This document shows positions 2,715 to 5,046 of a stretch of 15,003 nucleotides of DNA, one piece after another. The notes under the pieces were generated by a model, which was not told where the DNA came from, did no database searches, and saw nothing but the letters and a program-made list of their open reading frames with translations. The DNA is from a virus (lineage: Duplodnaviria; Heunggongvirae; Uroviricota; Caudoviricetes), in the IMG/VR virus record IMGVR_UViG_2734482594_000016. One strand, 5' to 3'. Numbering within the stretch: position 1 is the first letter of the stretch; the number at the start of each line of letters is the position of its first letter. The translations under genes and the position numbers were made by a program.

Positions 2715-4300
2715 ATGGGTAAAGGCAGCAGTAAGGGGCATACCCCGCGCGAAGCGAAGGACAACCTGAAGTCCACGCAGCTGCTGAGTGTGATCGATGC
2801 CATCAGCGAAGGGCCGGTTGAAGGTCCGGTGGATGGATTAAAAAGCGTGCTGCTGAACAGTACGCCGGTGCTGGACAATGAGGGGAATACCAACATCTCC
2901 GGCGTCACGGTGGTGTTCCGGGCAGGTGAGCAGGAGCAGTCACCGCCGGAGGGATTTGAATCCTCCGGCTCCGAGACGGTGCTGGGTACGGAAGTGAAAT
3001 ATGACACGCCGATCACCCGGACCATCACGTCGGCAAACATTGACCGACTGCGTTTTACCTTCGGTGTACAGGCACTGGTGGAAACCACCTCAAAGGGAGA
3101 CAGGAATCCGTCTGAAGTTCGCCTGCTGGTTCAGATACAGCGTAACGGTGGCTGGGTGACGGAAAAAGACATCACCATTAAGGGCAAAACCACCTCGCAG
3201 TATCTGGCCTCGGTGGTGGTGGATAACCTGCCGCCGCGCCCGTTTAATATCCGGATGCGCAGAATGACGCCGGACAGCACCACAGACCAGCTGCAGAACA
3301 AAACGCTCTGGTCGTCATACACCGAAATCATCGATGTGAAACAGTGCTACCCGAACACGGCACTGGTCGGCGTACAGGTGGATTCGGAGCAGTTCGGCAG
3401 CCAGCAGGTGAGCCGTAATTATCATCTTCGCGGGCGCATTCTGCAGGTGCCGTCGAACTATAATCCGCAGACGCGGCAATACAGCGGTATCTGGGACGGA
3501 ACGTTAAAACCGGCATACAGCAACAACATGGCCTGGTGTCTGTGGGATATGCTGACCCATCCGCGCTATGGCATGGGGAAACGTCTTGGTGCGGCAGATG
3601 TGGATAAATGGGCGCTGTATGTCATCGGCCAGTACTGTGACCAGTCGGTGCCGGACGGCTTTGGCAGCACGGAGCCGCGCATCACCTGTAATGCCTGGCT
3701 GACCACACAGCGCAAGGCGTGGGATGTGCTCAGTGATTTCTGCTCGGCGATGCGCTGTATGCCGGTATGGAACGGGCAGACGCTGACATTCGTGCAGGAC
3801 CGACAGTCGGATAAGGTGTGGGCCTATAACCGCAGTAATGTGGTGATGCCGGATGATGGCGCGCCGTTCCGCTACAGCTTCAGCGCCCTGAAAGACCGCC
3901 ATAATGCCGTTGAGGTGAACTGGATTGACCCGGATAACGGCTGGGAGACGGCGACAGAGCTTGTGGAGGATACGCAGGCCATTGTCCGTTACGGTCGTAA
4001 CGTCACGAAGATGGATGCCTTTGGCTGTACCAGCCGGGGGCAGGCACACCGCGCCGGGCTGTGGCTGATTAAAACGGAACTGCTGGAGACGCAGACCGTG
4101 GATTTCAGCGTGGGTGCTGAAGGGCTTCGTCATGTACCGGGCGATGTCATTGAAATCTGCGATGATGACTATGCCGGTATCCGCACCGGCGGGCGCGTGC
4201 TGGCGGTGAACAGCCAGACCCGGACGCTGACGCTCGACCGTGAAATCACGCTGCCATCCTCCGGCACCACGCTGATAAGCCTGGTTGACGGGCAGGGGAA
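2715..4300 (+). CDS. J: Host specificity / tail tip protein J, N-terminal ~528 aa up to the gap
   Basis: ATG at 2715 with GGAG 8 nt upstream; translation MGKGSSKGHTPREAKDNLKSTQLLSVIDAISEGPVEGPVDGLKSVLLNSTPVLDNEGN... matches the lambda J N-terminus from memory. Located 60 bp downstream of I. Confidence 0.9.
3814..4300 (+). repeat. Direct repeat copy 1 (~487 bp of J coding sequence), about 96% identical to 4560-5046
   Basis: Visual alignment: 3814 AGGTGTGGGCCTATAACCGCAG... versus 4560 AGGTGTGGACCTATAACCGCAG..., with scattered substitutions through to the gap edge. Confidence 0.85.
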
Positions 4301-4559
4301 NNNNNNNNNNNNNNNNNNNNNNNNNNNNNNNNNNNNNNNNNNNNNNNNNNNNNNNNNNNNNNNNNNNNNNNNNNNNNNNNNNNNNNNNNNNNNNNNNNNN
4401 NNNNNNNNNNNNNNNNNNNNNNNNNNNNNNNNNNNNNNNNNNNNNNNNNNNNNNNNNNNNNNNNNNNNNNNNNNNNNNNNNNNNNNNNNNNNNNNNNNNN
4501 NNNNNNNNNNNNNNNNNNNNNNNNNNNNNNNNNNNNNNNNNNNNNNNNNNNNNNNNNNN
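4301..4559. other. Run of 259 N inside J
   Basis: Directly visible. Confidence 1.
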
Positions 4560-5046
4560 AGGTGTGGACCTATAACCGCAGTAATGTGGTGATGCCGGAC
4601 GATGGCGCGCCGTTCCGCTACAGCTTCAGCGCCCTGAAAGACCGCCATAATGCCGTTGAGGTGAACTGGATTGACCCGAACAACGGCTGGGAGACGGCGA
4701 CAGAGCTTGTGGAGGACACGCAGGCCATTGCCCGTTACGGTCGTAACGTCACGAAGATGGATGCCTTTGGCTGTACCAGCCGGGGGCAGGCACACCGCGC
4801 AGGGCTGTGGCTGATTAAAACAGAACTGCTGGAAACGCAGACCGTGGACTTCAGCGTGGGCGCAGAAGGGCTTCGCCATGTGCCGGGCGATGTCATTGAA
4901 ATCTGTGATGATGACTATGCCGGTATCAGCACCGGCGGGCGCGTGCTGGCGGTAAACAGCCAGACCCGGACGCTGACGCTCGACCGTGAAATCACGCTGC
5001 CATCCTCCGGCACCACGCTGATAAGCCTGGTTGACGGTGAGGGTAA
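4560..5046 (+). repeat. Direct repeat copy 2, re-encoding J residues ~369-528 with a few substitutions
   Basis: Encoded peptide [42 protein letters not shown]... versus copy 1 [42 protein letters not shown]... Confidence 0.85.

Follow-up and report, generated by a model that had tools for sequence, protein, structure and literature searches.

The stretch of DNA analysed here (the window; 15,003 nt) carries a lambda-type tail gene region in which one segment of the host specificity gene J appears twice, on either side of a run of Ns. This layout raises the question of whether J contains an internal duplication or whether pieces of different J genes were placed one behind the other on a single scaffold. 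The initial annotation had described a 487-bp segment that is present twice at about 96% identity around the N run, and the alignment of positions 3814–4300 with positions 4560–5046 bore this out: the two copies are in register, without indels, and differ by 20 mismatches (95.9% identity), so that both the length and the identity of the match are far above chance. The claim that both copies encode the same J region was confirmed in the J reading frame (residues about 368–528), and the repeat lies within the Pfam Phage-tail_3 domain of J. Altogether, 19 codons differ between the copies, 14 synonymously and five non-synonymously, and the five substitutions (A370T, D407N, V424A, R490S, and Q527E) match exactly the amino acid differences that had been listed before. 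The fraction of synonymous changes among the codon differences fits the expectation for alleles.

Taken literally, the record shows two same-strand copies 746 nt apart, and this layout is the only observation in favour of a genuine tandem duplication of about 160 codons within J, in which about 259 bp of existing but unread DNA would separate the copies. The start-to-start spacing of 746 nt is, however, not a multiple of three. The left part of J is in frame 0 (start at position 2715), the right part is in frame 2 (4562), and the complete region 2715–6859 comprises 4145 nt, which is also not divisible by three. Therefore, no single open reading frame is possible across both copies. Nevertheless, the length of an N run may be a mere estimate, and the frame argument alone lacks the power to settle the case of a tandem duplication.

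The window as a whole consists of four contigs, here named A to D, that are chained across three N runs:

Positions 1–1929, minus strand: contig A, with J nt 1657–3498 (stop codon at position 88) and, beyond it, the terminator region between the genes and the opening bases of lom; its Pfam domains are Ig_J, Ig_J_second, Phage_Tail_Tip, and Ig_GpJ_C.
Positions 1930–2212: N run 1 (283 N), a scaffold join of the inverted 3' part of J to the middle of gene I.
Positions 2213–4300, plus strand: contig B, with the 3' part of tail assembly gene I (2213–2654) and J nt 1–1586 (2715–4300, residues 1–528); Pfam domains FNIII-A_GpJ and Phage-tail_3.
Positions 3814–4300, plus strand: first copy of the 487-nt segment (copy 1), with the contig B allele.
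Positions 4301–4559: N run 2 (259 N), the gap across which contig B is scaffolded to contig C.
Positions 4560–7407, plus strand: contig C, with J nt 1100–3399 (4560–6859) of a 3399-nt type of J and the first 160 codons of lom (6926–7407).
Positions 4560–5046, plus strand: second copy of the 487-nt segment (copy 2), with the contig C allele.
Positions 5045–5280, plus strand: 236 nt over which the two J copies probably do not differ.
Positions 7408–7595: N run 3 (188 N), a further join in the scaffold, with redundant J-end and lom sequence on its two sides.
Positions 7596–15003, plus strand: contig D, with the last 224 nt of J, the same allele as in contig A, followed by lom and the genes downstream of it.
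Positions 7890–8468, plus strand: lom.
Positions 8465–11869, plus strand: stf.
Positions 11869–12444, plus strand: tfa.
Positions 12477–13442, minus strand: sopB.
Positions 13442–14608, minus strand: sopA.

In complete genomes, the genes that align with contig B are annotated as 'tail assembly protein' and 'host specificity protein J'. Comparison of the contigs with one another revealed that the duplicated segment is not the only redundancy in the window. Positions 1–311 of contig A are 100% identical to the reverse complement of positions 7596–7906 of contig D; this match is a dovetail overlap between the reverse complement of A and D. The overlap reaches position 1, which suggests that a contig, or the record itself, ends where the window starts. 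In addition, contig C (6821–7407) and contig D (7781–8371) are 94–95% identical with two indels, so that a terminator-lom unit is present on both sides of N run 3. This redundancy arises because contig C carries the lom of a second J locus and contig D the lom of the phage-plasmid described below. Lastly, positions 1089–1929 of contig A match positions 5117–5958 of contig C in reverse orientation with 94% identity.

These relationships bear on the possibility that the N runs are not assembly gaps at all and instead mask real, continuous sequence, as some stretches of the presented data are described as masked with N. A normal gene under a mask would not produce flanks of the kind seen here: two of the three N runs lie between redundant flanks, the first lies beside a misoriented block, and the reading frames are not carried across. 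We consider masking very improbable and rejected it because the flanks are redundant or misoriented. N run 2, in particular, is not equivalent to 259 absent bases of J.

The continuation of the J gene that starts in contig B is present in the window itself: the true 3' partner of contig B is the inverted contig A at the left end, not contig C. On plasmid CP088810.1 the blocks tile colinearly, with B at 3001–5088, the reverse complement of A at 5159–7087, and D from 6777 onward; exactly 70 nt separate B from A, and the resulting J has 3498 nt, as annotated there. A scan of IMG/VR with the last 33 nt of contig B retrieved 36 contigs. Four gap-free loci from IMG/VR (L009, L010, L012, and L037) contain contig B with three mismatches in 2088 nt, followed after exactly 70 nt by the reverse complement of contig A. 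Contig A itself occurs with one mismatch in 1929 nt in six loci (L009, L010, L024, L031, L037, and L038) and with seven mismatches in L012, and in each of the one-mismatch loci that also hold B, it follows B after 70 nt. One of these, L038, contains only the last 1181 nt of B, with an identical join of B, the 70 nt, and A. The start of contig D comes next after A in L010, L037, and L038, at 99.2–99.7% identity. The contiguity of B, A, and D is thus directly visible in near-identical relatives without gaps, and J is an intact 3498-nt open reading frame (1165 aa) without Ns in these loci.

The 70 nt that are missing between B and A can also be taken from the window. In the gap-free relatives with the B allele (at least 98.4% identity over the segment), B is followed by 70 nt that match window positions 5047–5116 with 100% identity. 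When B (2715–4300), these 70 nt, and the reverse complement of A were joined, the result was an open frame of 1165 codons, which differs at four positions from the J genes of L010 and L037. The joined frame contains the full set of J domains in the full order, FNIII-A_GpJ and Phage-tail_3 from contig B, and Ig_J, Ig_J_second, Phage_Tail_Tip, and Ig_GpJ_C from contig A. Taken together, the tiling of B, A, and D in the relatives, the 1165-codon join, and the poor fit of C to D indicate that the element's real J, with 3498 nt and 1165 aa, is probably composed of B, these 70 nt, and A in reverse complement and extends into contig D. That the three contigs are contiguous in the source DNA as well is what the near-identical relatives and the 100% overlap between A and D would predict. 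J genes are mosaic, and the B allele could in principle have another 3' half in this strain.

The relatives also bear directly on the copy number of the 487-nt segment, which is present once in 34 of the 41 related loci that were fetched. The loci L009, L010, L012, L037, and L038, in which the matches are 99.6–99.95% identical, have one copy and an intact J of 3498 nt. In the nearest complete genome (G001), which has three J loci, and in a further virus record (G002), each J has the segment once, and the matches to B and to C cover overlapping parts of a single J. Sequence leading from copy 1 into copy 2 was found neither in the record, which has only Ns there, nor in the 41 related loci. Wherever copies are stacked on the same strand (L005, L016, L024, L025, L032, and L034), an N join lies either between them or at them. 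These six loci are IMG/VR UViGs from draft genomes and contain stacked fragments of different J alleles with single N characters between them; the stacking in them is the same scaffolding artefact as in the window. The locus L002 (CP088810.1, 50079–76580) has two copies of the segment in inverted orientation, only because the record is palindromic around the telomere.

For a real tandem duplication, these observations leave a negligible probability. It would have a period that is out of frame, and it is absent from the gap-free relatives, the complete genomes, and the phage-plasmids that were compared. The sequence that is expected to follow B is present in the window as contig A, a similar redundancy occurs at the 7408–7595 gap, and the 20 differences between the copies are mostly synonymous and match alleles that circulate separately. 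A tandem duplication was thus rejected on the grounds of the frame, the relatives, and the presence of the true partner contig.

Both alleles are indeed found in ordinary J genes. Copy 2 is 99.2% identical to J genes in complete Escherichia coli genomes, and copy 1 reaches 98.4% in complete E. coli genomes and 99.8% in gap-free J genes from IMG/VR. Of 5426 complete E. coli genomes, 4431 contain the 487-nt segment, with a median of two places and a maximum of eight per genome. Because the segment is multi-copy in E. coli, contig breaks and wrong joins are to be expected there. The initial annotation had read the two segments as the contig ends of two J alleles. This reading gains support from the bias toward synonymous changes, the out-of-frame spacing, and the single copy per J in the relatives, and the multi-copy nature of the segment in E. 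coli backs it further.

Thus, the 487-nt repeat is very probably a false duplication that was introduced by scaffolding pieces of two J genes, and not a biological feature. The proposed course of events is as follows. The source sample would have contained at least two lambda-type J genes with long identical stretches in common, and the assembler would have broken the contigs where the J copies turn identical. The scaffolder would then have linked the four fragments through N runs but wrongly ordered, with A (inverted) first and B, C, and D after it. B (J nt 1–1586, behind the 3' part of I) and C (J nt 1100–3399 of the other allele) both cover the 487 nt; as they cover the same part of J, the stretch appears twice, once per allele. 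Redundancy and frame mismatch can be read directly from the window; the assembler behaviour that gave the order may have been of this kind. Two observations are at odds with a scaffolding artefact, namely, that the positive gap of 259 is unlike a paired-read estimate of an overlap and that the inverted placement of A is mechanically unexplained.

The break points of the contigs are consistent with such a course. Contig C starts 8 nt ahead of its first difference from B, contig B ends 2 nt past its last difference from C, and the reverse complement of A first departs from C at position 5281. Together with the identity of the 70 nt, these break points imply that both J copies probably share the exact 236-nt stretch 5045–5280, and contigs B and A probably break at or inside it. 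The layout is that of a bubble between shared stretches of an assembly graph.

The same bubble pattern, with C starting just before the first difference and B ending just after the last, would also be expected if the join of B and C represented a real gene, that is, a second J with a 5' part identical to B up to position 3813 that continues as C. The scaffold would then trace copy 2, only the 487-nt tail of B (3814–4300) would stem from copy 1, and both the 3498-nt J and the 3399-nt J would be present in the sample. B (2715–4300) and C (5047–6859) can indeed be joined to an open frame of 3399 nt, and several J copies per genome are the norm. However, no near-identical relative of C that includes the 5' part of its own J was found, the best relatives being only 97–98% identical. 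We regard a real join of B and C as possible but the less probable option; it is a nuance of the scaffolding explanation, as there is no real duplication either way.

Contig C itself is a stray piece of a second J-lom locus with a J of the 3399-nt type and is the intruder in the scaffold. It is colinear with the 3399-nt J and the lom of NZ_CP145143.1 (97.3%) and with E. coli H1 (98.0%). The search for near-identical relatives of C that include the 5' part retrieved none: an exact C-specific 47-mer was present in only four IMG/VR contigs, none of which was closer than about 93–96%. The best relatives overall are chromosomal J genes of E. coli, at 97–98%. The second J-lom locus belongs either to another lambdoid prophage or to a second element in the same sample. 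Alternatively, the two alleles might stem from two strains or phage-plasmid variants in a mixed sample and not from two prophages in one cell. Each of the two J types is present on an N15-like phage-plasmid, NZ_CP145143.1 for the 3399-nt type and CP088810.1 for the 3498-nt type, which is in line with such a mixture. However, multiple J copies per E. coli genome are usual, so that no mixture is needed, and nothing in the window informs on the origin of the sample. We regard a mixed sample as rather unlikely.

False duplications of this kind, which resemble heterotypes, have been described at the scaffold gaps of draft assemblies (Kelley and Salzberg, 2010, PMC2864568; Ko et al., 2022, PMC9516828), and a gap between duplicated pairs on one scaffold is a hallmark of them (Ko et al., 2022). 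In the window, a run of 259 Ns lies between 3814–4300 and 4560–5046, and the copies are not identical, their variants being allele-specific. As in the published cases, two diverged versions are present on one scaffold with a gap between them, so that a stretch seems to be duplicated and the gene model comes out broken or chimeric. The published cases concern the haplotypes of diploids, whereas the versions in the window are paralogues of J from different prophages or phage-plasmids of a bacterial sample. The comparison covered the layout, the variants, and the gap-free relatives.

The element to which the real J belongs could be identified from contig D: it is a linear phage-plasmid of the N15-like kind, and contig D forms its end. 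Over positions 8419–15003, this contig shares 98.7% identity with CP088810.1, and its last 3.1 kb (11869–15003, tfa to sopBA) are 99.8% identical to NZ_CP145143.1 (E. coli pCAVP367-48), a linear record of 47.6 kb. The end of the window is 63 nt away from the palindrome centre of CP088810.1, beside the hairpin telomere. Groups of N15-like telomere phage-plasmids have been described (PMC7969092; PMC12042878). As in these, lambda-like tail genes are followed in the window by sopB and sopA (12477–14608), which adjoin the hairpin telomere; a protelomerase gene (TelN) would lie beyond the 15 kb of the window. Complete N15-like relatives have one gene I and one gene J and no inverted J fragment upstream of I; the record of the window differs from them in this respect.

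Several features of these records were observed in addition. CP088810.1 is an 81-kb plasmid labelled as circular, in which the arm J-lom-stf-tfa-sopB-sopA is present twice, inverted around the telomere site (palindrome centre near position 14330 of locus L002). The inverted arm looks like a hairpin read-through of a linear N15-like plasmid in a long-read assembly. Three records of 68–77 kb (NZ_CP126957.1, CP088562.1, and CP088738.1) have sopA or ParB, or other genes of the arm, listed twice, and the same read-through may have occurred in them. Some N15-like relatives have a macro-domain gene between stf and tfa (L001, 10982–11884; NZ_CP145143.1); in the window this gene is absent, and tfa follows stf directly at position 11869. 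The lom gene of contig D ends, in the region 8372–8470, with a stop after 192 codons, and its match to Pfam Ail_Lom ends at profile position 178 of 199. The lom stop overlaps the start region of stf, and the last barrel strand may be replaced.

The tip attachment protein J of lambda (gpJ) has 1132 aa. The domain order FNIII-A_GpJ, Phage-tail_3, Ig_J, Ig_J_second, Phage_Tail_Tip, Ig_GpJ_C is as in gpJ, and the gene order I-J-lom-stf-tfa is as in lambda. In contrast to gpJ, the J that belongs to the element has 1165 aa, the type also seen in CP088810.1, and its distal, receptor-binding part is different. The piece of a 1132-aa type J in the window is contig C, which comes from another copy.

The presence of two different J 3' halves in one record also allows a biological reading. 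The inverted half (1–1929) and the second half (4560–6859) would be alternative receptor-binding cassettes of one element, exchanged by inversion or recombination in the shared 236-nt stretch, and the assembly would have been broken by a heterogeneous population; we assign next to no probability to this proposal. An invertible host-range cassette was rejected because the window contains no recombinase and no junction, and it is further disfavoured by the complete relatives, which have the order K-I-J-lom-stf without an inverted J piece. If it were true, the cassettes would represent a host-range switch in a lambda-type tail tip.

With the repeat read as a scaffolding artefact, the finding is useful for curation only, and the artefact is an ordinary one. 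As presented, the gene model of J is wrong: gene calling would give either two J fragments or a single chimeric or oversized J, and such a model would mislead comparisons of host range and receptor binding. The correct J can be recovered from the record itself, as B, the 70 nt, and the reverse complement of A. Draft scaffolds often chain J fragments of different lambdoid prophages, and several IMG/VR records have the same stacking.
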